Notes: a model not told the origin generated them from the letters alone. A DNA stretch of 64,000 nucleotides from Patescibacteria group bacterium (GCA_019752595.1 JAIELV010000001.1:184486-248485); one strand, 5' to 3'. Counted from the stretch's first letter, positions 2,202 through 34,353 are shown. Program-made: numbers and translations.

Positions 2202-2559
2202 TTATTAACTCTACGCCCTTCATCAAGTACCGCAAGTTATGCGGGGAACTGAAGAGGGGATATGCAATGGTGGCATAAACGTAAATAGGTGGACCATAAC
2301 CCCCCCGGTTCTAAGTTTCGTGTGGGGCCTCCAAAAAAACGCGTGGGCTTTCCAAAAGTAGCACCAAAAATACTGTACGTTCGTTTGATTTTCTCACCCC
2401 CGATTGGGTGAGTGTTTCAAGAGTGTGTCATTAATAAGTAGGGAGAAGGGCTTTCAGGTCCCTGTCTCCCTACGAAGATACTTCGCACAATATATCTTTT
2501 GCGAAGTAATATAGGCAAGGATACAGGGGCTTTTCGCCCCCTGCATCTACCTCGTCTTT

Positions 2560-2841
2560 CTAGACTCCTCGTAGACCTATTGATGTTCCTGGAATGTTCT
2601 CGCGGTTGATTACGCGTACGCTTGCCCAAAATGCCTGACGTGGAGTCTGATTCCTTTTGTTTTGTGAGATAAAGTCTGGAAATTCTGTACCAGTTAGATC
2701 AAATACAGGCTCTCCGTTCAATTCGCCGTCGTAGTCTACCTGTAGGCATCCATTTATGTACCAAACCTTTACTGGAGTTCCGTCTCGCAATTTTCCTGGA
2801 AATGTTATCGCTAGAAGTTTTTCTTTTGTCATGGCTTGCAA
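2560..2841 (-). CDS. hypothetical protein (93 aa)
   Basis: ORF only; no recognisable motifs. Confidence 0.3.
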   Translation of the reverse strand: MQAMTKEKLLAITFPGKLRDGTPVKVWYINGCLQVDYDGELNGEPVFDLTGTEFPDFISQNKRNQTPRQAFWASVRVINRENIPGTSIGLRGV

Positions 2842-2929
2842 CTGTATTTCTTATTGCAGTTCTTGTCAAAGAATTTCGTGGTTTTTTGTACGTCAGAGGA
2901 TGTTATTTTCTTTTGTCCACACCCATATA

Positions 2930-2959
2930 TTGCATAAATTTAAAACAATGGTCTAATAT
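2930..2959 (+). promoter_or_regulatory. sigma70-like promoter TTGCAT-18-TAATAT, predicted leaderless transcript
   Basis: -10 ends 7 nt before the ATG at 2967. Confidence 0.3.
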
Positions 2960-2966
2960 ACTGAGC

Positions 2967-3260
2967 ATGGTAAACACCAGACTTTCAGAAGTAGGTCCCG
3001 CCACTCCCCGTCTACTCGATAAAATGCGCGAGGAGCTTGAGGGACTGTCTAATCAAACAGGCATCATTGCGCGTCGCGTGTCGGCCGTTACGCGTGTGCG
3101 TGGCATCAGAAACGCACACATAGGGCGTTTAGGTGCTATTTTCTTCACTACCAACAAGTTCGGCAAGGTTATTTTCTTCCCCAAAGGTGGGCGGATGCTT
3201 TTACACGCTCTCTTTGTCGATCCCGTGCCTGCGCGCTCAATTCAGAGTTCGCGATTGTGA
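2967..3260 (+). CDS. hypothetical protein (97 aa; start chosen at an internal Met of ORF 2802..3260)
   Basis: ORF preceded by a promoter-like element; no family recognised. Confidence 0.3.
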   Translation: MVNTRLSEVGPATPRLLDKMREELEGLSNQTGIIARRVSAVTRVRGIRNAHIGRLGAIFFTTNKFGKVIFFPKGGRMLLHALFVDPVPARSIQSSRL

Positions 3261-3800: not shown

Positions 3801-5171
3801 CTAGAGATATTTCAACGGATCAAGGTACGCATCCGTTGGCGCCACAGGAATTGTGGCGTTTGCGCAATTTGTTTTTGCTTTCACGTCGCCGTAACGCACA
3901 ACTTTAACCGCATCCGATACATAGAGCGTAAAGTGCAGGTGCGGGCCCGTAGCGTAGCCTGTTTTACCTGAATAGCCGATTAAACCTCCGCGTGATACTG
4001 CCTCCCCCTTTGTAACGCTAATTACCGAAAGGTGGGCGTAGAGCGTGGAGAGGCCGTTTGTATGCTTTACCAGAACCCATTTACCGTACGAATAGCAGCC
4101 TTTATACGCGTCTGTGTTCCCTGTCGCAGTTACTTCACCAGGGAGGGCAGAAACTATTTTAGTGCCCGTTGGAGTGCCGAAATCGATGCCGTTGTGGTCT
4201 TTTCCGTTATATGCGCCTGATTGTGCGAACGAAGTGTTGCCATAATACTGAGTAATGCAGTAGTTGTTTTTAAACGTACTGTAGCGGTCTTTGCACTTCG
4301 CCATAAACGCAGAGTCGACAGGGAAACTCAACACGCCACTCCCCGCTTTCGGAATTGATGTAGGGTCAAGGTTAAATTGAAGCGCAGCTTCGTAATCACC
4401 TAACTGTTTTTCAAACTCCAGTTTCGCAGCCTGTTTTTCGGCAAGAAGAGTTTGGAACTCTGATTCTTTGTTTTTTGTATCTGCTAGAAGGTTTGCCTGT
4501 TCTTTGCGGTTTTGATCCAATACTAATTTTTGATTCGCCAGTTCGCGTTTAAGGTTTTTCAGTTGATTTTGTTTCTTTTGGGTTTCGGTTAAATCGAGCG
4601 TGAGTTCTTGTTTCGTATCAAGAAGGTTATCAATCTGCGCGCGAAGTTTTTCTTGTACGATTCGCTCGCGGTCTGCAGTAGTCCACGCGTTCTCTAAACC
4701 GTTTGCCGTCAGCAAGTGTTCAACAAGTGTTGTTTCGCCAATTTTATAAATATTTTGAAATGCAAGATTAACCGCTTCCTTCCCAGCGTTGATACTTTTT
4801 TCTTTTTGACTGATTTCACCACCAAGTTCTTTAATCTCGAGGCTTGCTTCCGTAATCCTGTTTTCAGTAACAGAAATATCCGTACCGATTTTTTTGCGAG
4901 AAACGTCAATGCGCTTCACCTCGCTCTCTAATGTTGATTTTGCCGAGCCGATAACCACCAACTGGCGCTCATATTCGGCAATTTCTTTTTCAAGCTGAGC
5001 TATTTTTGCGTTTTGAGTGGCAATCCTTGCTGCTATTTCTTCAGCTGTTTCGGCTAGAGTATTTGTAGGTAATGTAAAAAGTGCACCCAGAACGAGGAGT
5101 GCAACTATACAAAGAGGCGCAATCCTATGAAAGCGAATCGATAGCACGGTTGATGCGCTTTTCAGTTTCAT
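3801..5171 (-). CDS. M23-family peptidoglycan metalloendopeptidase with N-terminal signal/TM and a long coiled coil (EnvC-like)
   Basis: C-terminal GIDFG...PHLHF (HxH) M23 motif. N-terminal hydrophobic segment, then a Gln/Glu/Lys-rich coiled coil. Confidence 0.8.
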   Translation of the reverse strand: MKLKSASTVLSIRFHRIAPLCIVALLVLGALFTLPTNTLAETAEEIAARIATQNAKIAQLEKEIAEYERQLVVIGSAKSTLESEVKRIDVSRKKIGTDISVTENRITEASLEIKELGGEISQKEKSINAGKEAVNLAFQNIYKIGETTLVEHLLTANGLENAWTTADRERIVQEKLRAQIDNLLDTKQELTLDLTETQKKQNQLKNLKRELANQKLVLDQNRKEQANLLADTKNKESEFQTLLAEKQAAKLEFEKQLGDYEAALQFNLDPTSIPKAGSGVLSFPVDSAFMAKCKDRYSTFKNNYCITQYYGNTSFAQSGAYNGKDHNGIDFGTPTGTKIVSALPGEVTATGNTDAYKGCYSYGKWVLVKHTNGLSTLYAHLSVISVTKGEAVSRGGLIGYSGKTGYATGPHLHFTLYVSDAVKVVRYGDVKAKTNCANATIPVAPTDAYLDPLKYL

Positions 5172-6567
5172 CTTTCCCTATAATACCTGCAATAGTAAAC
5201 GGATCAGGAGACTTTTCCTTACCAGAGAGGGCAAAGCGCAATGGCCACAGCACATTTCCCCTCCCTTCAGCCTCTGCGTACTCCCATACAGCGTTTTTGA
5301 CCGTCTCGGCTGTCCAACTTCCCTCTTGAACTGCCTGCAGGCGTGTGAGAGCTTCTGTAAGGCGAGAAGCGGTACCTGTAGCATCGGCGTTTTTTGGAAT
5401 GAGTTTTACCACCTCTACGTTTGGTGTTTCGGCAAAGTACAACCATTCTCCAGCAGAATCCATCTCTGTCAGATCTTTAAACACCTGAATGCGCTCGTGC
5501 ATTATCGGCACCAATTTTTCAAGCACTCCTTTTGTTTCAAGCGCTGCGCATGTGTCGGAAGACAGAAACTTTTTTGCGTACTGTATAAATTCAGTTTCAG
5601 GAAGTTTTAAAATGTGTTCGCGGTTAAACCATTTTAGCTTCTCTTCATTCAAAATCCCGCCGTGGGTTTGAATTTGATCAATAGAAAATACTTGCACCAG
5701 CTCTTCTTGTGAAAATATTTCTTTCTCACCCCCAGGATTCCAGCCAATAAGCGCTAAGAAATTTACAATTCCTGCAGGTAGGTATCCTTCAGTTCGGTAC
5801 TCAAGAATGTCTTTTGCGCCATCACGCTTGCCGAGTTTCTTTTTCCCGTCCGCACCCAAAATCGGTGGAAGTGTGACAAACACTGGATATGGAATACCTA
5901 ACGCATCATAGAGCGAGAGAAATTTTGGCGTAGACGCAATAAATTCATCAGCCCGAAACACGTGGGTCACGCCCATGTGCAAGTCGTCAATGATGTGTGC
6001 GAAGTTGTAGGTTGGATATCCATCACCCTTAATAAGAATAAAATCGTCGAGTGCCTCTTCTCCAGCCTCAAGTTCTCCGCGAACCGCATCATTCCACTTG
6101 TATCTCTTGATTTCTGGTACACGAAAGCGAAGTGGTTTTTTCCCATCCCACGTTTCAATTTTTTCTGGACGGTGATTTCTATACAAAAACGGGCGTCTTT
6201 CTTCCTCTGCTTTTTTTCGAAACGCTTCAACTTCTGCTTCTGTGTAGGGATCGGGGTACGCGTGACCTTTTGCAATCAGTTCATGCGCAGCCTTCACATA
6301 GGTATCCAAACGCTGAGATTGAATAGCCGAACCAAAAGGGTTTTTCTTGTCAGGGCCGTAATCCCAATCAAGGCCAAGCCACTGCAAGGATTCCTGAATA
6401 TGTTCAAGCGAGCCCGCCACTTCGCGCGCTTTGTCGGTGTCTTCGATGCGCAAAATAAATGTACCGTTTGTTTTACGTGCAATAAGCCACGCAAAAAGGG
6501 CGGTTCTGATTCCACCGATGTGCATGAATCCCGTCGGAGACGGTGCAAAACGCGTAACGACTTTCAT
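5125..6567 (-). CDS. gltX: glutamate--tRNA ligase
   Basis: N-terminal RFAPSPTGFMHIGG (HIGH), KLGKRDG (KMSKS-like), 480 aa class I aaRS. Confidence 0.9.
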   Translation of the reverse strand: MKVVTRFAPSPTGFMHIGGIRTALFAWLIARKTNGTFILRIEDTDKAREVAGSLEHIQESLQWLGLDWDYGPDKKNPFGSAIQSQRLDTYVKAAHELIAKGHAYPDPYTEAEVEAFRKKAEEERRPFLYRNHRPEKIETWDGKKPLRFRVPEIKRYKWNDAVRGELEAGEEALDDFILIKGDGYPTYNFAHIIDDLHMGVTHVFRADEFIASTPKFLSLYDALGIPYPVFVTLPPILGADGKKKLGKRDGAKDILEYRTEGYLPAGIVNFLALIGWNPGGEKEIFSQEELVQVFSIDQIQTHGGILNEEKLKWFNREHILKLPETEFIQYAKKFLSSDTCAALETKGVLEKLVPIMHERIQVFKDLTEMDSAGEWLYFAETPNVEVVKLIPKNADATGTASRLTEALTRLQAVQEGSWTAETVKNAVWEYAEAEGRGNVLWPLRFALSGKEKSPDPFTIAGIIGKDETEKRINRAIDSLS

Positions 6568-8220: not shown

Positions 8221-9321
8221 TTATGTATGCACGCTTCGAGAAACTGAGAGCAGTATGCCCGCTGCTCCCATTGATGCCAAAAGCGCACTCCCCCCATGCG
8301 AGACGAACACGAGAGGAAGTCCTGAGAGCGGAAATACGCCAAGCATCGCGGCTATATTCAGATACGATTCAGAAACAATCAGAACCACAATGCCAAGCGC
8401 CAAAAGACCACCGAAAACATCGGGAGCGCGGGCAGCAATCCAAAAACCGCGTAGCGCAAACACTAGGTACGCAATAACTAACGCAGAAGCACCTACAAAT
8501 CCTGCTTCTTCAGCGAACACAGAAAAGATTGAATCGGATGTGGGTTCAGGAAGTTTTCCAAATTTTTGCACACTTTGTCCAAAGCCTCTCCCAAAAATTT
8601 CTCCCGCGCCGACCGCCATAAGCGATTGCTGAATTTGGTATCCCGTTCCTTGCGGGTCGAGCCCAGGGTTTAAGAAACTCGTAATTCGATCTGCAACATA
8701 CGGACGAAAAGTGATCACGATAATGCCCGCAATCACGCCCAAGAGAACAATAATAGCGAGGTCACGTACTTTTGCTCCAGAGGCTGCAAACATTGCAAGT
8801 CCCGAGAGCGCGATAATCATAAACGTGTCGGTGTCTGGCTGAAGCAGAAGCGTTGCCCCCACGATTCCTGTGATGACGAGAAATGGCAAAAGTCCGTACC
8901 GCATCTCCCCTATTTTTGACTTTGCACCTGAAAGCCATGTAGCCAAATACAGCAGATAGCCAATTTTCAAAAATTCCGCAGGTTGCACCGTAAAGATTCC
9001 GAGGTCAATCCAGCGTCTGGCGCCGTTCAATTCAAGTCCGAGAGGTGTGAATACTAAAAAGCAAAGCGCGAGAGAACTTAAAAATAGGTACAGAGAAACA
9101 CCTCGCCAAAACCGATAGTGAATCGCAAGGCATATAAGAAAGACTACGGTACCGCCACCTAAGCCCAAGACCAGCTGGTTTCTTGCAACGTTCCCGAATT
9201 CAGGACCGCTTCCAGCCAAGAGACCAAGCGAGGCGGAGAGAAAAATTAAAAATCCTCCTACGATAAGGAGAATGATGGTAGAAAAAAGTATACGGTCCGA
9301 ATGTCCGCGCCCCTTAGTCAT
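8221..9321 (-). CDS. ftsW: SEDS-family peptidoglycan glycosyltransferase/lipid II flippase (FtsW/RodA)
   Basis: 10-TM SEDS protein with the conserved C-terminal region, between mraY and murG. Confidence 0.8.
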   Translation of the reverse strand: MTKGRGHSDRILFSTIILLIVGGFLIFLSASLGLLAGSGPEFGNVARNQLVLGLGGGTVVFLICLAIHYRFWRGVSLYLFLSSLALCFLVFTPLGLELNGARRWIDLGIFTVQPAEFLKIGYLLYLATWLSGAKSKIGEMRYGLLPFLVITGIVGATLLLQPDTDTFMIIALSGLAMFAASGAKVRDLAIIVLLGVIAGIIVITFRPYVADRITSFLNPGLDPQGTGYQIQQSLMAVGAGEIFGRGFGQSVQKFGKLPEPTSDSIFSVFAEEAGFVGASALVIAYLVFALRGFWIAARAPDVFGGLLALGIVVLIVSESYLNIAAMLGVFPLSGLPLVFVSHGGSALLASMGAAGILLSVSRSVHT

Positions 9322-22836: not shown

Positions 22837-23700
22837 CTAAGACGGGGTACCGTCAAGAGAATCTCGGCGGCTTTCTTTTTTGGCTTTAAGGTTTAGCGTC
22901 AACAAAAACGCAAACAGAAGAATATCCAAAAACGGTGGGAAGGCGCCAACGCCAAGGAAAAGCCAAGCGGAGGTAAGGAACATAATAGGCACCGTGGCAT
23001 AGAGCGCGGTTTTGTATGCCCCCTCGTATGTCATAGGAATTTTGCGGAGCTTTGCAATAAGAAGCGGTATCACAGCACCAAAAATCGACACGAAAAGATA
23101 AAAACCTGTCATGATGAACGCGAATAGTGGCGCACCAAAGATAATGAGGAGCGGGACTATAACCCACAAAAACGTCATCAAACCTTGTACAGCCGATGTA
23201 AGAAACGGTTTATCAAACGTGACGTCTTCGCCGAGTTCAGAGAGCGCAATCACACGCCCTTCCCCGCCGTCCTGATTTATATACAGTGATTCCTTTGTTA
23301 CTACTGCAACCGCCTTATACTCCTCGAGCGCCTGCACGGTAGTTTCAGGGCGGGTGTCAATAACAAGATAGTTTTCAAATGTACTGTTTTTTACTCTTTC
23401 ATCTTCAGGTATAGGAATGATATATGGCTCCTGGGCGCTGGTACTTGCTTTACCGTCTTTTATGCTAACGCTGAGTTCAGTGGGAAAATTTTCTTCAATA
23501 AAACTACTCGGTTGTATTGAGAGGAGCGATGAAATAGTGAATGCTGCTCCAACAATAACAACCGAGGTTGATACAAGGAGCGTGGAGAGAAACAAAAAAC
23601 CCACACTCGCACCGAATGATTTGTCGCGCGTGGAGGCGTAAAAAGAAGGCCCAAAGAATGAACTTTTAAGCTCTTCAAAAAAGCTTTTTATCTTAGACAT
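22837..23700 (-). CDS. hypothetical polytopic membrane protein (287 aa)
   Basis: Multiple TM segments; no family recognised. Confidence 0.4.
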   Translation of the reverse strand: MSKIKSFFEELKSSFFGPSFYASTRDKSFGASVGFLFLSTLLVSTSVVIVGAAFTISSLLSIQPSSFIEENFPTELSVSIKDGKASTSAQEPYIIPIPEDERVKNSTFENYLVIDTRPETTVQALEEYKAVAVVTKESLYINQDGGEGRVIALSELGEDVTFDKPFLTSAVQGLMTFLWVIVPLLIIFGAPLFAFIMTGFYLFVSIFGAVIPLLIAKLRKIPMTYEGAYKTALYATVPIMFLTSAWLFLGVGAFPPFLDILLFAFLLTLNLKAKKESRRDSLDGTPS

Positions 23701-23718
23701 TGAAACAGTATACCGATT

Positions 23719-25356
23719 TTAGTTTAAAAGCGGGAGTTCAAGGATAAAACGTGAGCCCTTGCCTTCCCCGTCCGATTCTGCCCATATTTTGCCTTTATGG
23801 GCTAGTACGTGTGCCTTGGTGATGTAGAGGCCGACTCCTGTTGAGGCTATGTTTATCTTCAGAGAGTTTTCCCCTGCAGAAAAAAGTTGGAATAATTTTG
23901 CAATGGTCTCCTTGGACATGCCGATTCCTGTGTCTTTCAATGTTATACGAGCCACAGAGCCCACTTTTTCTGCAACGACAGAAATAGTGCCTTTGGGTGT
24001 GTATTTAATTGAGTTATCCAAAAGATTATTAAATACCTCGTTAATTTTTGCCACGTCTAATCGTGCTTTTTTGTTCTCAAGTTCGGGGTTGAGAGTAAAC
24101 GTCATATGGACGCCTTTCTTCTCGGCGTTCGGCGTAAAGTCTTTTACGGCTTTTTTGAGTATCGGCGCGAGATCAACATTGATAAAATCGTACTTCATTC
24201 TGCCCTGTTCAATACGAGAAACGTTGAGGTAGGTATCAACTGATTTCGCCATGTCTGTGGCGCGTTCAAACACTTGGTGGAGGCCTTCTTCTGCGGCTTT
24301 TGGCATCTTGCCGTACGAGCCATCAAGAACCAGGGAAACGTAGTTTCGAATGACGGTCAATGGCGCGCGCAGGTCGTGGGAAGCAATTGAGAGAAATTCT
24401 GACTTCAACTTATCGAGTTCTTTTAACTTTTCATTTGCCAATTGAAGGTTTTTTGCTAGTTCCTGAATCTGTTCTCTTTGCTCAACTTCCTTCATGACTG
24501 AGCGTATTAAGAGAACGCCAGTGACGAGGATGAGAACAAAGATGCTTAAACGGAAGACAATTTGAGAAAAATCATCTGCAAAAAAGATTTCAAGTAAGCT
24601 GGTGAGTGCCAAAAGGCCGACGATGAATTGCGTGGCAAGGATTTTAATATCCAAGAGGTGGTGTTTAGTAATTGCATATGCGGTAAGGAAAATAAACGGA
24701 AAGGTAAAGACGCCCGCAAACGGCGCGAAGGTTGGGTTGTTTAAAATTGCTGGAAAGACAAAATTAAATATAAGTATCAATGTGTACGTCACCAGGGTGC
24801 CAGTTGCAATATACGTATATGCAGAGCGGGTAGAACCTCGTGAGGCAAAGAGTTTCTTAAAGATAATCAGAAGTGCCGAAAGGTGTAGAAGAATGACAGT
24901 TATACCGAACACAGGAACTGCGGGGCCGTTCGTGACCGTTGCCACTTGCCCTGCCACTATATTTTCAACGCCCTGAAACACGAGCGGGGTCAGCGTGAGA
25001 AGCGATACCAGTCCAACAAAAGGAATGAGGAGAAATCGATACCATGACGGAAGCACTACTGCAGGCTTGGGGAATACATAAAATAGCTGAAACACAGAGA
25101 ACGCGTGCCAGACGGCAAAAAAGACTGCGGCACGCAGGGTCCAGATAATTAGTGTGGGATCTGTTAACCGAAAGACTATGAGGTTGAGCGCCCCCCAGAG
25201 AATGACAGTTATTGAAGCAAACAGGAATGAGCGGTTAGTGAGGCTTTTGGGATTGTTGAAAAATACAATAAAACCAAAAATACCAATAGCGACCGCTACC
25301 AATCCGATAATAAAAATGTCTAGATTCTGCGTTTTCAGAATCTCACTGATTTCCAT
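23719..25356 (-). CDS. sensor histidine kinase with N-terminal 7-TM sensor domain (orphan; no adjacent response regulator)
   Basis: H-box LSIASHDLRAPLT, N-box LLDNSIKYT, G1 LKDTGIGM, G2 STGVGLYI. Confidence 0.8.
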   Translation of the reverse strand: MEISEILKTQNLDIFIIGLVAVAIGIFGFIVFFNNPKSLTNRSFLFASITVILWGALNLIVFRLTDPTLIIWTLRAAVFFAVWHAFSVFQLFYVFPKPAVVLPSWYRFLLIPFVGLVSLLTLTPLVFQGVENIVAGQVATVTNGPAVPVFGITVILLHLSALLIIFKKLFASRGSTRSAYTYIATGTLVTYTLILIFNFVFPAILNNPTFAPFAGVFTFPFIFLTAYAITKHHLLDIKILATQFIVGLLALTSLLEIFFADDFSQIVFRLSIFVLILVTGVLLIRSVMKEVEQREQIQELAKNLQLANEKLKELDKLKSEFLSIASHDLRAPLTVIRNYVSLVLDGSYGKMPKAAEEGLHQVFERATDMAKSVDTYLNVSRIEQGRMKYDFINVDLAPILKKAVKDFTPNAEKKGVHMTFTLNPELENKKARLDVAKINEVFNNLLDNSIKYTPKGTISVVAEKVGSVARITLKDTGIGMSKETIAKLFQLFSAGENSLKINIASTGVGLYITKAHVLAHKGKIWAESDGEGKGSRFILELPLLN

Positions 25357-25379
25357 ACTAGAGTTCTAGTATAACTCGC

Positions 25380-26435
25380 CTAAATGATGTGGGGTGGTTT
25401 TTTTGAAGAAAATGCGGATGGAGAGTCGCTCTCACCTATTCTAAAGAACACCGCGGGAACTCCGCTCACGTTTTTGAGTGTTGTTGTCAATACTTTTTTT
25501 GCTTCAGCAAGTTTTGTTTTCTGCTCCGAGGTCAGTTGAAGCGCTGTGTCTTCTTCGGCGCGGAGCGCAAGGTAATACGCACCCATGATTGGCTGAAGCG
25601 AAAGTCCTAGAGAGCCCGCCTTAAGCCAGACGTGCTCAAGTGCTCTACCTGCCTGAACTAGGTTTTCTTTAGTAAGGCTCGGGACAGTAATAACTCCTAT
25701 TGCGCCGACACTTGCATACACATTCTCGACATTTTGTTTTGCGGCAACACTTCCAAAACCGATAGCGCCGAATGTGCGTGCAACTGCGGGGTATTTGAGG
25801 ATGTTGAACATCCCACGAACAGGTGGCGGTAATTCAAACGTATCGATAAAAAGACCGCTCTTTTTTGTAGCTTCTTCCTTAGCAGTCCACACCAGATGCG
25901 GGAAAAGCGCGTCATGCACCACGTGTGCATTAAAGATGAGCCAGTCATTTACGCTCCATGCGTTTGCGACTGATTCAATATCCGTTTTTTCAGTGAGAAA
26001 AGAAACCCGAGCCGAAGATTGTATATCTCCAGGTAACACAGACAATTGCTGTAGTTTATTTTGCTCGAGCACTTTTTTGTATGGTTTACGGTTTGTTGTC
26101 CGCGTATCAATGTGTGCTACCAGCGAGGCTCTCCCTGTCCCCTGTCCTTTTGAAAGTATAAGTTTTAAGACGGTGTCGGATTCTTCTGGAAGTACCTCAA
26201 CTACGCACGCGTATCCAAGCGTTTCGGCAGTTATGACAGCGTTTTCGAGAGCAGCGCCGTGCGCCACCATTGAGCCGCGCTGTTTGTAGTTATATACAGT
26301 TGTGTCGTTTTCGGGTGCGTTTTGAAACACTATCGCATCATCTAGAATTTTGAACTTCCATGGCTGATAGTTGTGGCCAGATGGGGCCTGTACCGCTGCT
26401 TTCAAGATAATGTCGATGTCTTGTTTTGGAATCAT
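25380..26435 (-). CDS. extended nitroreductase-superfamily protein (351 aa; SagB-like or tandem-NTR size)
   Basis: N-terminal AAVQAPSGHNYQPWKF nitroreductase motif. Second NTR-like region near the C-terminus (AGRALEHVWLKAGSLGLSLQPI). Confidence 0.6.
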   Translation of the reverse strand: MIPKQDIDIILKAAVQAPSGHNYQPWKFKILDDAIVFQNAPENDTTVYNYKQRGSMVAHGAALENAVITAETLGYACVVEVLPEESDTVLKLILSKGQGTGRASLVAHIDTRTTNRKPYKKVLEQNKLQQLSVLPGDIQSSARVSFLTEKTDIESVANAWSVNDWLIFNAHVVHDALFPHLVWTAKEEATKKSGLFIDTFELPPPVRGMFNILKYPAVARTFGAIGFGSVAAKQNVENVYASVGAIGVITVPSLTKENLVQAGRALEHVWLKAGSLGLSLQPIMGAYYLALRAEEDTALQLTSEQKTKLAEAKKVLTTTLKNVSGVPAVFFRIGESDSPSAFSSKKPPHII

Positions 26436-27841
26436 GATGATATAACCAAACGAGGTTTTTTACCTGAAATCTGGAGGAGCGCCTTCTTTTCAAAGCGGGT
26501 CTCCGTACTTACTGTACCGCGTTTTTTGAGGCGTATTCGGGGAACGGCTGCACTTCCTATTCGGTCGTAAAGTTGCTTAAACTCAGAACTTACAGTGAGA
26601 AGTTTTTCCGTTATTTTCGTTGCAATCTTTACTTCCATTTCTTTAGTCGCCCGTACCTTTTCTTTCAGTTCGACGTCAATAATGAGTTCTTCAGAGTATG
26701 CCCCTTTACGCTTTCTGGTATATGCAAAATAGGAGCCAGTGCTGACCCCGTGCGGAATGCCAGAAGCTATCTGATCAGGATATATGTTGAGGGCGTACAG
26801 AGTAACGGCAACATCCGTTCTTCCGCTTATAGTGACCGCAGGAAGACGATCCCACACGGCCTTCTTGCTTCGCTTTTCAATCACTGCGAGCGCGCCTGGA
26901 GCGAATACGCTTCCTGTGTCGTGGATGTTGTAGCGAACCAACGGAATCGGCATATGTTTGGTAATCAGAAGTTCTTCCCCGCTTTCCTCTATATAGAGTG
27001 AGTCAGGCAAATACTGATAGATACCCCCTTGCTTCTCATCCTTCCCAAACAATTTTGAGTAGAGAGCCTTGTCAGTCCTCGCTTTACGACGCAAACGTAT
27101 AGTTGCAGGTGTTTCAAATGCCATTGAGCCTGCGTCCGCGGAACCGTAGAGGCTGATTATTCTTTCATACGAAGTCGGCTTGCCGATAAGTTTTGCAGCT
27201 TCGTCGCGCCATTCTTCAGAGAATTTATCGCCTGCCGTCAGAAGAAATAGCGAGCGGTGCATCTCCGTGTCGGTCGTCTTAAGCTCGCGAAGAAAATCCA
27301 TAACGTACGGTGGATACCCCGCTATAACAACGTGCCTGAAAAGGTGTACTGAATTTTTGTACGCAATCAGACCGTCCTTGCGGTCGATTCCTGGGGTAGC
27401 AACGGTGATATTGAAACCATCTTTTCGTAGTTCGCGCACGGCGTCTGCGGTAAAAAGACCCGCAACCCAGAGGCCCATTGAAAATGTGATGAGAACCAAG
27501 GTTGGCTCGTTCGGCTTTATTCCGTAAATTTTTTCAATAATGTATCGGTGCAGCGCTGCGCCCTCTGCGAGTGTTTGTTCGTCTCTAAACCAAACCGAAG
27601 GCTTGCCCGATGAGCCAGAGCTCACGTATGTTACTGCTCCTGCAGATTCATCCTGCAAAAGGTCATCCGCAGCGTACTTCTTTATGAAAGATTCTTTTGA
27701 GGTTACGGGTAGTTTAAAAAATGTTGCACTCGATACTTTTTTCGGCACGGTTCCCGTCATTTTTTTTACATACCTCTTATACGCAAGGGAGTGCTTCAGA
27801 GCCTTCTCAGCAACGCTACAGATTTTTCTAGAAGGTTTCAT
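26432..27841 (-). CDS. PaaK/coenzyme-F390-synthetase-like adenylate-forming ligase
   Basis: ANL P-loop YVSSGSSGKPSVW, A8-like YNIHDTG, 469 aa. Confidence 0.6.
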   Translation of the reverse strand: MKPSRKICSVAEKALKHSLAYKRYVKKMTGTVPKKVSSATFFKLPVTSKESFIKKYAADDLLQDESAGAVTYVSSGSSGKPSVWFRDEQTLAEGAALHRYIIEKIYGIKPNEPTLVLITFSMGLWVAGLFTADAVRELRKDGFNITVATPGIDRKDGLIAYKNSVHLFRHVVIAGYPPYVMDFLRELKTTDTEMHRSLFLLTAGDKFSEEWRDEAAKLIGKPTSYERIISLYGSADAGSMAFETPATIRLRRKARTDKALYSKLFGKDEKQGGIYQYLPDSLYIEESGEELLITKHMPIPLVRYNIHDTGSVFAPGALAVIEKRSKKAVWDRLPAVTISGRTDVAVTLYALNIYPDQIASGIPHGVSTGSYFAYTRKRKGAYSEELIIDVELKEKVRATKEMEVKIATKITEKLLTVSSEFKQLYDRIGSAAVPRIRLKKRGTVSTETRFEKKALLQISGKKPRLVISS

Positions 27842-28947
27842 GCGTGCTTCGGATTCTTTACCAAACTTTCTAAAGTATAGCTGTAACGACCTGAAGGTAC
27901 CGATTGCCCCGAAAGTATCTGGCGTGCCGTATACGCGACCGCAGCCCCCGCAAAGGCTGCTGAGGCGCCCAGCTGAGGTATTGAAGGAATGGTTTTACCA
28001 AGCTCCCCTATTGAAAAACGCATCGATTCTTCAAGCTCGTTTATACCCACTATGGCGTTGGCTAACTTCAACCACTCTTCGTAGCTTAAGTTTTTAAGTG
28101 TGTCAGGATCTACGTCGGTTCCAGGAAGATTGTAAAAAAGAGGTCGTTCTGGCTCAAGATCAAAGCGTTCAATGTCGAGAATAATGCCGTTACCGTTGTC
28201 GGTTGCCATGATGACGGGAATTTTTTCCCGCTTTGCAATCTGGCGCATGCGTATTTTGAATTCAATGGATTCTACCTCGTCTATGAGGAGGTCTAGCTTT
28301 GGAGAGCACATAAACGCTTCTATGTTTTCTGAGGTAACACCGTTTTCAAAAAGTTCGACGTTTGTGTAGGGGTCTAATTCCCACACTGCGCGGGCGGCGG
28401 TTTCAGTTTTCGGTTGAAGTATGTCGGGAAGACCCGCGCGAAGGCGATTCAGATTTGTTGTCTCAACGACATCCATGTCAGCTATCTTTATGTTTTTTGG
28501 ACCGCCCGATTGCACGAGGGCATTCAAAATTGCCGAGCCTACCGAGAGGCCTGCAACCGCTACGGTACCCGCACGGAACTTTTCTTGAACCTCTTTCGTG
28601 ATGAGGTGTTTGTTTCTGGCGGTCCTGAGTTCAAAGTATTCCGCCTCAGGCAAGGAACGTACCGCCCTTTTCAACCAGGGGTAAAAAATGAATACCGAAG
28701 TAATGTTTTTTTCGGCAACAAATGCTGTGCGTGCCCTTTCGAACTCTGGAGTGCCTTTTTTCGTGCCTGGATTACGGATAGAAAAAAGCTCTCCGCGCAT
28801 TGATGCGGTCGCATCAACAATTTCCGTACCTTTTGGTATATCTTTTTCTTCCTTGAATATCTGAGGCGCGTTTACCGCGTCGAACGAGGAAGAAAACGAG
28901 CGTTCACGTTCGTTTTTTCCAAGTGATGATGAGGAAAGACCTACCAT
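27838..28947 (-). CDS. E1-like (ThiF/MoeB/HesA-family) adenylyltransferase with ~120-aa N-terminal extension
   Basis: Rossmann VAVAGLSVGSAI and E1 signature DMDVVETTNLNRL. Confidence 0.7.
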   Translation of the reverse strand: MVGLSSSSLGKNERERSFSSSFDAVNAPQIFKEEKDIPKGTEIVDATASMRGELFSIRNPGTKKGTPEFERARTAFVAEKNITSVFIFYPWLKRAVRSLPEAEYFELRTARNKHLITKEVQEKFRAGTVAVAGLSVGSAILNALVQSGGPKNIKIADMDVVETTNLNRLRAGLPDILQPKTETAARAVWELDPYTNVELFENGVTSENIEAFMCSPKLDLLIDEVESIEFKIRMRQIAKREKIPVIMATDNGNGIILDIERFDLEPERPLFYNLPGTDVDPDTLKNLSYEEWLKLANAIVGINELEESMRFSIGELGKTIPSIPQLGASAAFAGAAVAYTARQILSGQSVPSGRYSYTLESLVKNPKHA

Positions 28948-30515
28948 GCGTCACCGTGTCCGTTTTGGATGGTTTTTATAAGGTTATTCAACTCTCCCGA
29001 GAACGAACGGTCTTCAATAACCACAGGTACTTCTTTTCGCACTTTCTCGTAAAGCTCGCGGCTCTTCACTGACAAACGAGCAGATGATTTTAGAACATCG
29101 GTTGCTTGTGCGAGTGTTATGAGTTCAATGGCTATCACGACAAACGCGTTCTCAATCGCTTTTGCAGCTATGAGCGCGGCGTCGGTACCCATTGAAACAA
29201 CGTCTTGGTTGTCAGCGTTCGTGGAGATTGAATGCAGTGAGTGCGGGTAGCCCATCGACTGACTGTCAGCCGTGGTTGACGTCGCTACGAACTGGAGGCC
29301 CTGCAAACCAAGTGTGAGTCCAGGTTGCTTCAGGTTCAAGAACGGTGGGAATGTTTGGTTTACATTTCGGTTCAAAAAGAAGTTGATTCTTCTCTCCGAA
29401 AGCATGGTGGTCTTAATCATTCCGATTTTCAGCTGGTCAACAGCAGCGGCGATGTATTCACCGTGGAAGTTACCACCGTGAATAAACTGTTTTTCCTTAA
29501 GGTCGATGATGGGGTTGTCGGTAACGGAGTTAAGCTCAACCGTTACATCCCCACGAGCTTTCTGAACAATGTCATACACAGGGCCTAAAATTTGAGGCAC
29601 ACAACGGAATGAATAGACATCCTGAATATGTTCAGGGGTCACATAGACGTTATCAATAACATGTACACGTGATTGAAGATCCTCTCTGTTCGTAAGCAAT
29701 TTCGAGGTTGCAACAATTTCGCGTAAACGACGCGCAACTTCGCGCTGACCCACGTGTGGACGGACAGCCGAAAGGCCGTCTGAGATAGCGTCGCTGATAC
29801 CGTTCACGAGCTCGAATGAAAGTGCGCTTGTCTGAATCGCCAAATCAAGCACTTTCGTAGCGCGGTACACGAGAAGTGCGCTGATACCTGTCATGAACGA
29901 GGTGCCGTTAATCAACGAGAGTCCTTCTTTTGGCAACAAGCGGTGTGGCTTGATGCGGAGTTTCTTCAGGACGCCTTTGGTTGGCTGGCGCTTTCCTTTA
30001 TAGAAAACTTCCCCTTCGCCTATGAGCGCGAGCGCAATGTGGGCAAGCTGAACCAAGTCGCCAGAGGTGCCTACAGCACCGTGACGCGGGACTATAGGAA
30101 TGATTCGGTGATTGATGAAGGATGCGAGGTGGTTGACCAGTGCTTCTGAGATACCCGAATGCCCCTTCACCATAGAGTTGAGGCGGTCCACCATTGCCGC
30201 AAGCACGAAATCTTCCTCGACTGGTTTTCCTGCGCCTACCGCATGGCTTCTGATGAGGTTGTACTGAAGTTCCTCAAGCTGGCTCTTGCCGATAATGTGC
30301 GATGCCATGGGACCGAATCCTGTAGTGATTCCGTACAAAACCTTCTTGTCCATTTCTTTAATTAAAAAGGCATTCGCGTCATGCACGCGCTTCATTGCCT
30401 CATGTGAGATGCTTACTTTAACTTTCGGATTCGCTACGACCTGATTTACTTTCTCAGGCGTAAGAGAGTTTCCGTCGAGCACTACAACAAGACCTTTCTG
30501 TGGTTTAGAAGACAT
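28941..30515 (-). CDS. MIO-dependent ammonia-lyase/aminomutase family protein (HAL/PAL/TAL-like)
   Basis: YGITTGFG, RSHAVGAG, GAVGTSGDLVQLAH (MIO triad as Thr-Ser-Gly), 524 aa. Confidence 0.8.
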   Translation of the reverse strand: MSSKPQKGLVVVLDGNSLTPEKVNQVVANPKVKVSISHEAMKRVHDANAFLIKEMDKKVLYGITTGFGPMASHIIGKSQLEELQYNLIRSHAVGAGKPVEEDFVLAAMVDRLNSMVKGHSGISEALVNHLASFINHRIIPIVPRHGAVGTSGDLVQLAHIALALIGEGEVFYKGKRQPTKGVLKKLRIKPHRLLPKEGLSLINGTSFMTGISALLVYRATKVLDLAIQTSALSFELVNGISDAISDGLSAVRPHVGQREVARRLREIVATSKLLTNREDLQSRVHVIDNVYVTPEHIQDVYSFRCVPQILGPVYDIVQKARGDVTVELNSVTDNPIIDLKEKQFIHGGNFHGEYIAAAVDQLKIGMIKTTMLSERRINFFLNRNVNQTFPPFLNLKQPGLTLGLQGLQFVATSTTADSQSMGYPHSLHSISTNADNQDVVSMGTDAALIAAKAIENAFVVIAIELITLAQATDVLKSSARLSVKSRELYEKVRKEVPVVIEDRSFSGELNNLIKTIQNGHGDAW

Positions 30516-30525
30516 ACATTAATTA

Positions 30526-31035
30526 TTATCTACCAAAAAAGAATAGACCGGCTAAAGGCGCTACGAGCCACCAGAAAAACATTTCTGGAGAGGCAAAGAG
30601 CGCAAGAGTAGGGGCACTGAACGTGTAGATCGTCTGCACAGGAAGCACGTGAATACTGATAGCAAGAATCAAGCCCGCAGTAACCCCTGAGAGGATTGCA
30701 GTCCCTAGGAAACTTGAGGTTGAGCGTGCAAGGAAAAAGGAGAGACCTGAAAACGCGAGTAGCGATACAAGTGTAAAACCCACAAAGACACCGATTTGGA
30801 TGTAGGCGTTATCTGCTGGAAATAGTGAGCCATAAGGGAAGGCTCTGTAGAGGACGATACCCGCATAGAGGGCTGCAATAAGAGAAATGAGGCGGTCGCG
30901 ACCGAAGTAGAACGCGATGGTTGCTATGGCGCCTGCAACGACAATGAAGGCAAAAAAATCAGCCCCAAACGCGATGACGTAATCAAGCGCTGCTTTGAGG
31001 GGCTCTGCAATACCAGGGTTCCCCAGCAAATCCAT
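30526..31035 (-). CDS. hypothetical polytopic membrane protein (169 aa)
   Basis: 4-5 TM segments; 10 nt upstream of the lyase gene. Confidence 0.4.
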   Translation of the reverse strand: MDLLGNPGIAEPLKAALDYVIAFGADFFAFIVVAGAIATIAFYFGRDRLISLIAALYAGIVLYRAFPYGSLFPADNAYIQIGVFVGFTLVSLLAFSGLSFFLARSTSSFLGTAILSGVTAGLILAISIHVLPVQTIYTFSAPTLALFASPEMFFWWLVAPLAGLFFFGR

Positions 31036-31071: not shown

Positions 31072-32139
31072 CTATATCCCCTCCTTCTTCAGCTTCTCCA
31101 AGAGCTCCTTTGCTTCCTTTGAAAGTTTCTGTGGGAACTCGACTTTTACGCGAATCAACAAGTCACCGCGTTTTGAACGGTCCATGGGCACACCCTTCCC
31201 TTTCACTCTCAGTATTTCGTCAGTTGAGCGAAGCGGGGGCACATTAATGGTTACTTCACCATCCAATGTGTCGAGTTTGTACTCAGAACCGATGAGTGCG
31301 TCGGTAATTTTGACAGGCAAATCGGTCACGATGTTGTAGCCCTCTTTACGGAATTTTCTGTCAGGGCGTACGTGTACTTTGACGTACAAATCTCCTGGCC
31401 CGCCTGCTGAAACTGCTTCACCCAAACCACCCATTCTGATTACTTGACCACTGTCGATACCCGCGGGTACTTGCACCGTAATCTCTTCTTCTTTTCTCTC
31501 TACACCCTGACCGCGGCACATAGTGCATGGCTTTTCAGGCACCACGCGCCTTCCTTTGCAGGTCTGGCAGGTAGTAGATACGGAAAATACACCGAACGGA
31601 GAACGGCGTGATTCAACAACCTGCCCTTTGCCGTTACAGGTGGCGCAGGTCTTTGTTTTTGTGTTTGGTTCCGCTCCACTTCCAGTGCAGCGCTCGCACG
31701 TGCTGTCCTTGGTGATAAGCACTTTGCGGGTGACACCAAAGATTGATTCTTTGAACGAAAGTTCTATATCAATAGAGATGTCCCGACCACGATGCGAGCG
31801 CCCACCGCCCCCAAAAATGTCATTAAAGCCACCGAATATGTCGTTGAGATCTATATCAAATTCAACTCCATTTTGGCCACCGAAACCTGAGAAATCAAAA
31901 CCCTCCGCACCTCCTGCACCGCCTCCGCCTGAGAACACGCGTCCGTATGAGTCGTACTCTGCGCGTTTCTTATCATCAGAAAGAACCGTATACGCTTCGC
32001 TTACCTCTTTGAACTTTGCCTCGTCGCCTCCTTTTTTGTCAGGATGATACTTATGAGCCAGCGTTCGAAACGCTTTTTTTATATCTTCCTTTGTTGCTTT
32101 CTTTTCAACGCCGAGAATTTGATAGTAGTCCTTGCTCAT
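31072..32139 (-). CDS. dnaJ: chaperone DnaJ
   Basis: J-domain with HPD. G/F region. Four CxxCxGxG repeats. Confidence 0.9.
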
Positions 32140-32185: not shown

Positions 32186-32494
32186 TTATTTTTCAACCGT
32201 GAACCGACTTGGGCGCGCCGTGTAAACCTTCTCGTACCCGTCCTCGAATGTTTTTAGCGCCCGCACTTTTGCAAGGTCAGTGAAGCCTATGACCACGCAT
32301 CCAGTAATGGGGGTTTTGCTGGCGAAGCCGCCATTATTTGTTGGGTTAAAGTAGGACACTTTAGCCCCAACTTGGATATCTCGTAATCTAAGCTCACGCG
32401 TATTACTAATTCGTTCAGAATCCTGCTGTGGCGTAAGACGGCGATTCGTCTCCGTCGGAAGCCCAACAAATATATAGTCTCGCTCTACGTTCAT
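32186..32494 (-). CDS. hypothetical protein (102 aa) inserted between dnaK and dnaJ
   Basis: ORF overlaps the dnaK stop by 4 nt. Confidence 0.4.
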
Positions 32495-34353
32495 ACGTCA
32501 GTGACGTTTCCCTCAGGTGCTGTACCTGCTTCAGGTGGTTTTTCGTCTTTCTTTTCCTCCTGCATGTACTGGCCAATTTTCTGCATCTCAGTTGAGAGTG
32601 CCTGTGTTGTTGATTTAATACCTTCTACATCCCCCGTATCGCGTCTTTCTTTCGCGGCAGTGATTGCAGTTTGAACGCCTGTTTTTACATCCTCAGGGAT
32701 TTTTGCACCGTGGTCTACGAGGGCTTTTTCTGCTGTGTAGATTGCTTGGTCTGCAAAGTTTCGCACCTCAACAAGCTCTTTTGCGCTCTTGTCTTTATCC
32801 GCATTCATTTCTGCGTCTTTTTTCATGCGTTCGATATCTGCATCCGTAAGGCCAGAACGCGCCTCAATCTTGATGGTCTGCTCTTTACCTGTCGCTTTGT
32901 CTTTTGCAGTTACTTTCAAAATGCCGTTCGCGTCGACATCAAATGTGACTTCTACTTGTGGCATACCGCGTGGCGCTGGTGGAATACCCTCGAGGATGAA
33001 TCGTCCGAGTGATTTGTTATCGTTTGCCATTGCGCGCTCGCCTTGAACCACATGCACCTCCACCGATGTCTGATTGTCTGCTGCTGTTGAGAATGTCTGA
33101 CCTTTTGCAGTCGGGATAGTGGTGTTCTTTTCAATAAGTTTCGTAGCCACACCTCCCATGGTTTCAATACCAAGTGAGAGCGGAATAACATCCAAGAGAA
33201 GAACATCTTTCACATCGCCCTGCAAGATTCCTCCCTGAATAGCGGCACCGAGCGCGACTACTTCGTCGGGGTTTACACCGAGGTGTGGTTCTTTTCCGAA
33301 GTAATCCTTTACCGCTTTCTGAATCATTGGCATTCGTGTCTGACCGCCAACCAAAATGACTTCATTAATTTCACCAATCTTAAAAGGCGAGGCCTCCATC
33401 GCGCGCTTGGTGATTGCCATTGAGCGCGCCACAAACTCGTCTGTGAGTTCTTCTAGTTTTGCGCGTGAGAGCGTCAAAAGGAGATGTTTCGGCCCTGAAG
33501 CGTCTGAGGTAATGAAGGGAATGTTAATTTCAGATTGAACGGCGCTTGAAAGTTCAATCTTCGCCTTTTCAGCTGCTTCGTCCAATCGCTGTCGCGCCAA
33601 TGGATCACCCATGATGTCGATACCCGATTCTTTTTTGAATTCGTCGGCAATCCACTGAATGATTTTTTGATCGATGTCACGACCACCAAGGTGCGAGTCG
33701 CCGTCCGTCGATTTCACTTCAATAACGTCATCCCCCACTTCAAGAATGGAAATATCGAATGTTCCCCCGCCGAAGTCGTAGACTGCAATTTTTTCATTTT
33801 TCTTTTTATCAAAACCGTATGCAAGCGCGGCTGCAGTTGGTTCATTAATGATGCGCTTCACATCGAGGCCTGCAATTTTACCCGCATCTTTTGTAGCTTG
33901 CCTCTGAGAGTCGTTGAAGTATGCAGGGACAGTAATCACGGCTTCAGTAATCGGTTCACCCAGGCGGGCTTCTGCGTCTGCCTTCAACTTCTGTAGAATC
34001 ATTGCTGAAACTTCCTCAGGGCGATAATTTTTATCACCCATTTTCACCTCAATACCGCCATTCGCGCTTTTGAGGAGTTCGTACGCCAGTGCAGATTTAT
34101 CTTTCTGCACCGCTTGTTCGTCAAATGTGTGCCCGATAAATCGCTTTATCTGATAGACAGTGTTTTTCGGATTTGTGACTGCCTGACGCTTTGCGAGAAG
34201 TCCAGCGAGGCGTTCTCCTGTCTTTGAGACAGCGACTACCGAAGGCGTCGTACGATTTCCCTCCGCATTTTCAATGATGCGCGGTTCGCCGCCTTCGACA
34301 ATAGCCATCGCCGAATTTGTAGTGCCCAAGTCAATACCAAGAATTTTTCCCAT
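32491..34353 (-). CDS. dnaK: chaperone DnaK (Hsp70)
   Basis: [17 protein letters not shown], 620 aa. Confidence 0.95.

Follow-up and report, generated by a model that had tools for sequence, protein, structure and literature searches.

The window analysed here, a stretch of 64,000 nucleotides (nt) from a Patescibacteria group bacterium (GCA_019752595.1 JAIELV010000001.1:184486-248485; positions are counted from its first letter), carries on its minus strand, downstream of dnaJ, an array of enzyme genes ending in the gene of a sensor histidine kinase, which we refer to as the module. In the order of transcription, its genes are:

28941-30515, minus strand: predicted aromatic amino-acid ammonia-lyase or aminomutase of the 4-methylideneimidazole-5-one (MIO) type (PF00221)
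27838-28947, minus strand: ThiF/E1-like enzyme, predicted ATP-dependent cyclase (N-terminal half of NF005901)
26432-27841, minus strand: PaaK-fold adenylate-forming ligase (AlphaFold2 model searched with Foldseek; adenylation motifs)
25380-26435, minus strand: Acg/TyzC-type flavin-dependent oxidase, nitroreductase-like (C-terminal half of NF005901; 2YMV fold)
23719-25356, minus strand: sensor histidine kinase, predicted to be of the multi-pass, seven-transmembrane (7TM) type (HisKA, HATPase_c)

By the coordinates of the open reading frames (ORFs), successive enzyme genes share overlaps of 7, 4 and 4 nt, and 23 nt separate the oxidase gene from the kinase gene. Our ORF list reproduced all the minus-strand coordinates, overlaps and gaps given by an earlier reading of this DNA made without database searches (hereafter the sequence-only reading), and the domain classes it had named hold by Pfam and NCBIfam profiles, the PaaK class being weak by sequence and confirmed by structure and motifs.

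The enzymes are genuinely co-localised elsewhere, as the set recurs, whole or in part, across 50 related loci, nearly all from Patescibacteria; 47 of these turned up when species-representative genomes were scanned with the ligase alignment, and three in contig look-ups. ORF clustering, which covered 51 sources and ORFs of at least 50 amino acids (aa), recovered the ligase in 50 sources, the kinase in 41, the oxidase in 40, the E1 in 39 and the lyase in 21. The module genes are always contiguous and co-oriented, while their order is permuted between lineages: lyase-E1-ligase-oxidase-kinase as in the window, E1-ligase-lyase-oxidase-kinase, oxidase-E1-[dehydrogenase]-ligase-kinase, or ligase-E1-oxidase-kinase. 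From these counts and permuted orders, we take the conserved unit to be the E1, the ligase, the oxidase and the kinase, with the lyase as an option, and the recurrence of a contiguous, co-oriented set in dozens of independent genomes puts the arrangement far beyond chance. The quartet of lyase, E1, ligase and nitroreductase that had been read as the unit is thus not the one conserved, since the lyase occurs in only 21 of the 51 sources, a dehydrogenase is found in other lineages, and the kinase, taken earlier for a mere follower of the operon, belongs to the core. Other genes are inserted in some loci, namely S-adenosylmethionine (SAM) methyltransferases, an alpha/beta hydrolase and an M19 dipeptidase.

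Natural fusions tie the enzymes more closely still. Among the top 150 representatives of the ligase family, three long proteins join module domains in a single chain:

P0401, 880 aa: fusion of E1 and ligase
P0423, 863 aa: fusion of ligase and E1
P0470, 1242 aa: fusion of amino-acid dehydrogenase, ligase and E1

The P0470 locus consists of the oxidase, the triple fusion, an alpha/beta hydrolase and a HisKA_7TM kinase; that of P0401 of the E1-ligase fusion, oxidase, hydrolase and kinase; and that of P0423 of the ligase-E1 fusion, hydrolase, kinase and a receiver. Such fusions argue strongly for a single pathway shared by the deaminating enzyme, the ligase and the E1, and the domain order of P0470 is also the order of the reactions proposed below.

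The E1-like gene and the "double-length nitroreductase" of the sequence-only reading are, on the grounds of profiles and motifs, the predicted split version of a known enzyme, the oxazolone synthetase formed by a ThiF domain and a flavin-dependent oxidase (OxzB; TyzB/TyzC; TrzS, which is Rv1355c). Indeed, the E1 matches the NCBIfam model NF005901 ("Rv1355c family protein") with 270 bits (E 3e-80) over positions 35-341 of its 722, and the oxidase matches the same model with 179 bits over positions 374-713. Any other ThiF family model gives the E1 at most 65 bits, and Pfam ThiF 84 bits; the oxidase scores 126 bits with the Acg family and 45 bits with Pfam Nitroreductase. Compared with a Rv1355c-family protein of Rhodococcus qingshengii (on a plasmid, L051), the E1 is 36% identical over 344 aa and the oxidase 25% identical over 275 aa (E 2e-20). 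The E1 alignment covers residues 12-110, that is, the N-terminal extension, which is therefore a trait of the family rather than an added recognition element of the kind found in pathways for ribosomally made peptides with post-translational modifications (RiPPs). A joint alignment of 39 E1s with three Rv1355c-family (TrzS-like) proteins, comparators taken from a plasmid collection since a large-database search with the E1 had retrieved only stand-alone E1s of Patescibacteria and had not reached TrzS, revealed the clade-specific motifs YPW, RxxRN, GLSVGS, ADxDx5NLNR, ExDS..K..R, IPVxMAT, DxERxD and PQLG in common, and the oxidases conserve APSGxNxQPW and RxTNR.

Structure prediction agrees with this assignment. 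The AlphaFold2 model of the oxidase (predicted local distance difference test, pLDDT, 93.6) has a monomeric, pseudo-dimeric nitroreductase fold whose sole strong neighbour in the PDB is the Mycobacterium smegmatis Acg homologue 2YMV (E 4e-14, template modelling (TM) score 0.71-0.76; next matches at E of at least 1e-4), and 2YMV is also the nearest structure to the oxidase domain of TrzS (PMC12856293). The oxidase is encoded in the same operon as the E1, one gene away. Residues studied by mutagenesis in TrzS are Asp217 of the ATP site and Arg540 and Gln651 of the oxidase (PMC12856293); the acidic pair of the E1 and the "LQP" Gln of the oxidase are kept, as judged by alignment to Rhodococcus and Mycolicibacterium Rv1355c-family proteins. 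TrzS turns N-acyl tryptophan into N-acyl tryptazolone (PMC12856293), and the split TyzB/TyzC and the fused OxzB perform the same conversion with N-acyl tyrosine or phenylalanine; all are experimentally proven oxazolone synthetases with N-acyl Trp, Tyr or Phe as substrates (PMC12856293, PMC10404671, bioRxiv 10.1101/2020.06.11.147165, PMC12596934). As the E1 and the extended nitroreductase correspond to this pair, and as the E1 falls in the TrzS clade, its most likely reaction is the cyclodehydration of a small N-acyl amino acid and not, as first supposed, the activation of a carrier or peptide C-terminus. The window profiles confirm that the E1 has no ThiS/MoaD or YcaO partners; a sulfur-carrier E1 of the ThiS/MoaD kind was ruled out by the lack of these partners and by the TrzS clade, and an anti-phage E1/E2 system (Cap2-like) by PADLOC matches that are just generic to the Rossmann region, at 28.6 bits or less. 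No N-acyltransferase of the OxzA/TyzA/TrzA/NasY type was found in the window, and no such family is conserved across the 50 related loci. On the Rhodococcus plasmid, the Rv1355c-family gene adjoins a gene for a GGDEF-domain protein; genes of cyclic di-GMP metabolism are likewise reported beside trzAS (PMC12856293).

The place of the missing acyltransferase may be taken by the ligase. Its sequence scores are low (37 bits with TIGR02155, cut-off 646; 18.8 bits with AMP-binding_C_2, below cut-off), and it is the AlphaFold model (pLDDT 85.6) that places it, with PaaK2 (2y4o, E 5e-20), BT_0428, NatL2, AjiA1 and 2-hydroxyisobutyryl-CoA ligase as its top Foldseek neighbours and TM scores of 0.61-0.69 at 15-19% identity to PaaK-family structures. 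The family alignment keeps SSGSSGxP, YGSAD, RYNIHD, GRTD and a C-terminal GKKPR, so that the protein is, by predicted fold and motifs, a member of the PaaK-fold adenylate-forming superfamily with a complete adenylation motif set. It is also, as its relatives indicate, a member of a distinct and mostly patescibacterial family: nearly all of its 122 matches come from Patescibacteria genomes assembled from metagenomes (MAGs), and a profile search of 1.84 billion representatives gave 948 family representatives at E <= 1e-30. No paa genes lie near it in the window profile searches, and it occurs together with the E1 in about 43 of 49 loci. NatL2 and AjiA1 are PaaK-family enzymes that couple aryl acids directly to another molecule without coenzyme A (CoA). 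With regard to these neighbours, we propose that the ligase makes the N-acyl amino acid, standing in for the N-acyltransferase.

The lyase matches Lyase_aromatic (PF00221) with 528 bits, above the cut-off; among NCBIfam models it comes closest to the flexirubin tyrosine ammonia-lyase FlxA (598.5 bits, below the cut-off of 700), while hutH TIGR01225 gives 464 bits (cut-off 539) and aminomutase models likewise stay below their cut-offs. The catalytic residues are retained, with GFG, NGT, YSxRC, NQD and the MIO triad all in place. Its "NQDVVSMG" is identical to that of the tyrosine aminomutase SgTAM, where the histidine ammonia-lyase (HAL) 7tqr reads "QEDH", including the HAL-specific Glu that we take to be Glu414; the selectivity pair "SH" is common to HAL and SgTAM. 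The presence of "NQDV" in place of "QEDH" suggests an aromatic, probably tyrosine-type enzyme rather than HutH, and the protein is, from these motifs, probably a Tyr-type MIO enzyme, whether ammonia-lyase or aminomutase. The sequence-only reading was right to set histidine catabolism aside: a HAL in a hut pathway was ruled out by NQDV, by the score of 464 against 539 bits and by the absence of hutU/I/G from the window. The MIO triad itself (window 29985-30026 region, lyase residues ~146-159, GAVGTSGDLVQLAH) is Thr-Ser-Gly (TSG) and not the usual Ala-Ser-Gly (ASG); TSG is found in most Patescibacteria copies and ASG in two close relatives and in a divergent second lyase type, and the literature searched for the TSG form held no description of it.

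This second lyase type (L007, L009, L010 and L014) is ~30% identical to the window lyase, reads "NFMGY" for "NFHGD", and follows the ligase where the window lyase precedes the E1; its divergence and position suggest that MIO enzymes were recruited into the module independently. In six loci that have no lyase, the slot is taken by a dehydrogenase of the Glu/Leu/Phe/Val (ELFV) family, of Leu/Phe-dehydrogenase size. That the optional genes encode two unrelated amino-acid-deaminating enzymes, MIO lyase or ELFV dehydrogenase, counts in favour of the pathway proposed below, in which the lyase would be an optional "acid-donor" accessory of the module.

The kinase shows HisKA (40.6 bits), HATPase_c (76.9 bits) and HisKA_7TM (20.9 bits, below the cut-off of 28.6) matches, and has the H-box SHDLRAPL as well as N and G boxes; HisKA_7TM was recorded as the Pfam family of the module-adjacent kinases of L056, L058 and L059. 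In 41 of the 51 sources, including the fusion loci L056, L058 and L059, the enzyme genes are directly followed by the gene of an orthologue with 35-47% identity. No receiver domain or response regulator was found within the window; 11 other loci have single-domain receivers close to the module. Downstream of the kinase, Magasanikbacteria-type loci (L030, L036, L037, L039, L056, L058) carry bactofilin and diacylglycerol-kinase-like genes, which may hint at a connection with the envelope or cytoskeleton. A contig of a "Saccharibacteria"-labelled MAG (L015) encodes three paralogues of ~255 aa with 6-8 transmembrane segments (2463-3236, 4529-5302, 8381-9136), among whose genes those of the E1, lyase and ligase are interspersed; the contig ends before any kinase position, and no BLAST similarity links these paralogues to the kinase sensor region.

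On this basis, we give about an even chance to the proposal that the locus is a small-molecule biosynthetic module with a split oxazolone synthetase core, coupled to a sensor kinase and widespread in Patescibacteria. From the homologies, folds, motifs, synteny and fusions described above, we infer the substrates, the formation of an amide by the ligase, the product and the role of the kinase as follows. The MIO lyase would produce an aryl-acrylic acid by deaminating an aromatic amino acid, tyrosine being the most likely; elsewhere, a Leu/Phe-type amino-acid dehydrogenase would give a 2-oxo acid, and other lineages would obtain their acid from another source. The ligase would adenylate this acid and couple it to an amino acid through the latter's amino group. 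In all described oxazolone pathways, the N-acyl amino acid so formed is the product of an acyl-CoA-dependent N-acyltransferase (OxzA/TyzA/TrzA), which the ligase would replace. The E1 would then adenylate the carboxylate of the N-acyl amino acid, the amide oxygen closing a 5(4H)-oxazolone ring, and the oxidase would desaturate C-alpha/C-beta to a conjugated 4-alkylidene or 4-arylidene oxazolone; after hydrolysis, the product would be an N-acyl dehydroamino acid, and either form would be lipophilic and conjugated. The methyltransferases and hydrolases of other loci would tailor this product, and the occurrence of methyltransferases beside ThiF and nitroreductase in stieleriacine clusters also counts in favour of the pathway. 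In one locus (L029, 11517-12458), the M19 "membrane dipeptidase" gene lies between ligase and kinase; the M19 family takes in dehydropeptidases, and the enzyme would fit a product containing a dehydroamino acid. Of the chemistry that the sequence-only reading had outlined, deamination followed by adenylation and ligation fits the comparative data; E1 action on a carrier or peptide C-terminus is the less likely part.

The last step is the least supported of the mechanism: the constant presence of the 7TM kinase suggests that it senses the lipophilic product, as in a synthase/receptor pair, or else controls the operon in response to an external cue. A complete circuit, in which Patescibacteria make a conjugated alkylidene oxazolone (aryl-acryloyl or 2-oxoacyl) or an N-acyl dehydroamino acid from scavenged amino acids and detect it with the co-inherited 7TM kinase, seems to us doubtful, if conceivable.

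Several observations weigh against the split-synthetase proposal. Each half by itself stays below the NF005901 equivalog cut-off (476 bits), and the window E1 reads "DEVES" at the "ExDS" motif, with Glu where at least 90% of the aligned E1s, including the three Rv1355c-family proteins, have Asp. The arginines of the "DRIRF" motif of Rv1355c-family oxidases, which probably include the Arg540 studied in TrzS, are not conserved in Patescibacteria oxidases. Amide synthesis on amino acids is what we infer for a PaaK-family ligase, which might instead produce a CoA thioester or work once the ring has opened. Lyase and dehydrogenase are both missing from about half of the loci, and the adjacency of the kinase does not make the product its ligand. 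In the complete 837-kb genome of a Niyogibacteria (CP066691.1; L002, 8001-9437), a lone ligase directly follows hrcA-grpE-dnaK-dnaJ, and E1, oxidase and kinase are all absent within 8 kb of it; either this gene is a remnant or its partners are encoded elsewhere. Finally, many Patescibacteria have an anaerobic lifestyle. The characterised oxazolone-synthetase oxidases require O2 (PMC12856293), and this dependence is a problem for anaerobic hosts.

The same components admit other readings. If the E1 adenylated the C-terminus of a peptide or protein (as with MccB, PaaA or the "C" protein of thiazole/oxazole-modified microcins, TOMMs) and the oxidase were a SagB-like flavin mononucleotide (FMN) dehydrogenase, the module would be RiPP-like or protein-directed, with the ligase and lyase supplying an aryl-acryloyl cap to a precursor that goes unrecognised, is encoded elsewhere or is the kinase itself. 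An E1 beside an FMN dehydrogenase does resemble TOMM C and B proteins. The roughly 100-aa N-terminal extension of the E1 would suit such a role, and macromolecular carboxylates are the usual targets of E1-like enzymes (review PMC12596934). We nevertheless judge this reading unlikely, as the E1 gives 270 bits with the small-molecule Rv1355c/TrzS family against at most 65 with other ThiF families, its extension itself aligns to the Rhodococcus Rv1355c-family protein, YcaO and ThiS/MoaD are absent, intergenic gaps of 0-36 nt leave no space for a precursor gene, and no conserved non-enzyme ORF of at least 50 aa occurs in the 50 loci. A TOMM/RiPP cyclodehydratase system proper was ruled out on the same grounds (no YcaO, no room for a precursor, an Acg/TyzC-type rather than SagB-type oxidase, an E1 of the TrzS clade). 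A catabolic or salvage route, comprising deamination, formation of a CoA thioester by the PaaK-like ligase, reduction of the enoate or oxo acid by the nitroreductase-like protein and sensing of the amino acid by the kinase, would account for the aryl-acid CoA ligases among the PaaK-fold neighbours and for the two different deaminating enzymes tied to the module. It would however leave without a role the TrzS-type E1, which is invariably linked and even fused; no locus contains downstream CoA-dependent enzymes, about half lack any lyase or dehydrogenase, and the methyltransferases suggest tailoring of a product, all of which makes this route improbable to a similar degree.

Slightly less probable again is that the module supplies a chromophore to a light or redox sensor, an aryl-acryloyl group or an arylidene oxazolone like the chromophore of green fluorescent protein serving as covalent or bound cofactor of the kinase. 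Tyrosine ammonia-lyase and p-coumarate ligase supply the chromophore of photoactive yellow protein (PYP), which is the analogy behind this reading; a Tyr-type lyase, a ligase and a kinase adjoin in the window, PAS-containing hybrid kinases flank the four enzymes in one non-patescibacterial locus (L003), and an arylidene oxazolone would be a conjugated chromophore. Yet the Patescibacteria kinases have a 7TM sensor with no PAS or PYP domain detected, and the lyase is optional. That unrelated genes stand together merely through inherited synteny in a compact genome would agree with the density of Patescibacteria genomes, the uniform GC content of the region and the flanks that are also syntenic in several loci (dnaK/dnaJ upstream; TrpRS, AspRS and ScpA/B downstream). 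This we consider very improbable, because the set remains contiguous and co-oriented even though its internal order is permuted, because it is also present in non-patescibacterial genomes (L003; Streptomyces L038/L049), and because the three kinds of natural fusion strongly disfavour this reading.

The non-patescibacterial loci differ in layout. L003 (6328-14887), from an 8.78-Mb genome, reads lyase-ligase-[640-bp gap]-E1-oxidase, with PAS-rich hybrid histidine kinases on both sides and just a 97-aa ORF in the gap. A Streptomyces locus (L038, 454-4117) has ligase-E1-oxidase, and S. lomondensis (L049, 8333-12467) has an MIO lyase of the phenylalanine ammonia-lyase type ("FL" pair), then a ligase that looks frameshifted and an E1; no oxidase was detected there. 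L008, L035 and L036 come from MAGs labelled Binatia, Armatimonadota and Gammaproteobacteria; their modules and flanks are typical of Patescibacteria, and the labels probably reflect mis-binning.

From the perspective of known systems, OxzB (Pseudoalteromonas rubra, with OxzA), TyzB and TyzC (with TyzA) and TrzS (Mycobacterium tuberculosis, with TrzA) combine a ThiF-like cyclase with an Acg-type oxidase as the window does; the two proteins are adjacent in the window as in TyzB/TyzC, whereas OxzB and TrzS are fused. Unlike these systems, the window has no N-acyltransferase; it has instead a PaaK-fold ligase in the operon, fused to the E1 in some genomes, and it adds an MIO lyase (elsewhere an amino-acid dehydrogenase) and a constant 7TM histidine kinase. 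The hosts also differ, being Proteobacteria, Actinomycetota and Planctomycetota for the oxazolone synthetases and Patescibacteria for the window, with identities of only 25-36%. Clusters for stieleriacine, thalassotalic and kyonggic acids comprise NasY, ThiF, nitroreductase and methyltransferase, the last of which is also present in many Patescibacteria loci. Such N-acyl dehydrotyrosine clusters end in a ring-opened N-acyl dehydroamino acid, which is a possible product of the window too, but they use a fatty acyl thioester donor and an N-acyl amino acid synthase where we propose an ATP-dependent ligase and an amino-acid-derived acid. The window ligase shares its fold and adenylation motifs with PaaK1/2 (phenylacetate-CoA ligase), BT_0428 and NatL2/AjiA1 (benzoxazole biosynthesis); unlike PaaK, it belongs to a separate family at 15-19% identity and has no paa operon. 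Similarly, the lyase has the full-length MIO fold and catalytic residues of FlxA, SgTAM and HutH, but differs in its TSG triad and in the absence of flexirubin genes and hutU/I/G.

The sequence-only reading knew of no pathway combining the four enzyme classes. For the E1 and the extended nitroreductase this does not hold, the pair being that of the oxazolone synthetases; for the whole combination it does, since the literature searched held no oxazolone-type ThiF/oxidase pair with a PaaK-fold ligase, with an MIO lyase or amino-acid dehydrogenase, or with a histidine kinase, and none in Patescibacteria. The combination with ligase, deaminating enzyme and sensor kinase is thus not previously described in the searchable literature. 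Oxazolone synthetases were discovered in 2020-21. The physiological role of oxazolones is "a major unresolved question" according to the authors of the TrzS study (PMC12856293), and the module product may be a small signalling or envelope molecule. The proposed variant would be independent of CoA and acyltransferase, would draw its acyl donor from amino-acid deamination and comes with a nearly invariable membrane sensor kinase. Many Patescibacteria lineages with genomes under 1 Mb spend about 7 kb on the module, which leads to the hypothesis that this uncultivated radiation makes a signalling or envelope metabolite and to a proposed function for a large unannotated ligase family, and the natural three-domain fusion enzymes are candidate biocatalysts. 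If true, the synthase/receptor pair would give these ultra-small episymbionts their first candidate circuit for cell-cell or host-sensing signals, and the oxazolone class its first candidate receptor, the 7TM kinase.

Around the module, the window contains the following genes:

32491-34353, minus strand: dnaK (ORF list)
32186-32494, minus strand: 102-aa ORF, between dnaK and dnaJ
31072-32139, minus strand: dnaJ (TIGR02349, 385 bits)
30526-31035, minus strand: small polytopic membrane protein of 169 aa, between dnaJ and the lyase gene
22837-23700, minus strand: DUF1189 protein, a membrane-protein gene beyond the kinase (18-nt gap)

The membrane-protein gene is separated from dnaJ by 36 nt and from the lyase gene by 10 nt; grpE and the genes for S9, L13, L17 and RpoA (rpoA) lie farther upstream of dnaK-dnaJ. 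A genomic island was ruled out by the even GC content of the region (0.44-0.50) and its syntenic flanks. As to the fusion of the array to the chaperone unit claimed earlier, the gene immediately upstream of the module is dnaJ in 8 of 50 distinct loci (window, L001, L002, L020, L021, L027, L041, L048), so that the adjacency recurs but is not universal, and the dnaJ-adjacent modules differ in internal gene order. Together with the lone L002 ligase, this favours an old position on the chromosome over a functional fusion that would be universal. A scan for consensus promoters and terminators gave nothing between dnaJ and the module and fewer promoter-like sites than in shuffled sequence, which makes it uninformative on co-transcription.

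The small membrane protein, placed just before the operon by the sequence-only reading, has no Pfam, NCBIfam or PADLOC family and is not conserved with the module: a homologue was detected solely in the dnaJ-adjacent L020 (tblastn, 48 bits), with a C-terminal motif similar by eye. In L001 and L005, a 189-aa polytopic ORF occupies the same position after dnaJ, with no detected similarity to the 169-aa protein, which is probably a lineage-specific neighbour and not part of the module. The DUF1189 gene is not conserved with the module either. As for the 102-aa ORF, it has no Pfam, NCBIfam or PADLOC family and overlaps the dnaK stop by 4 nt; in related loci, dnaK directly adjoins dnaJ without it.

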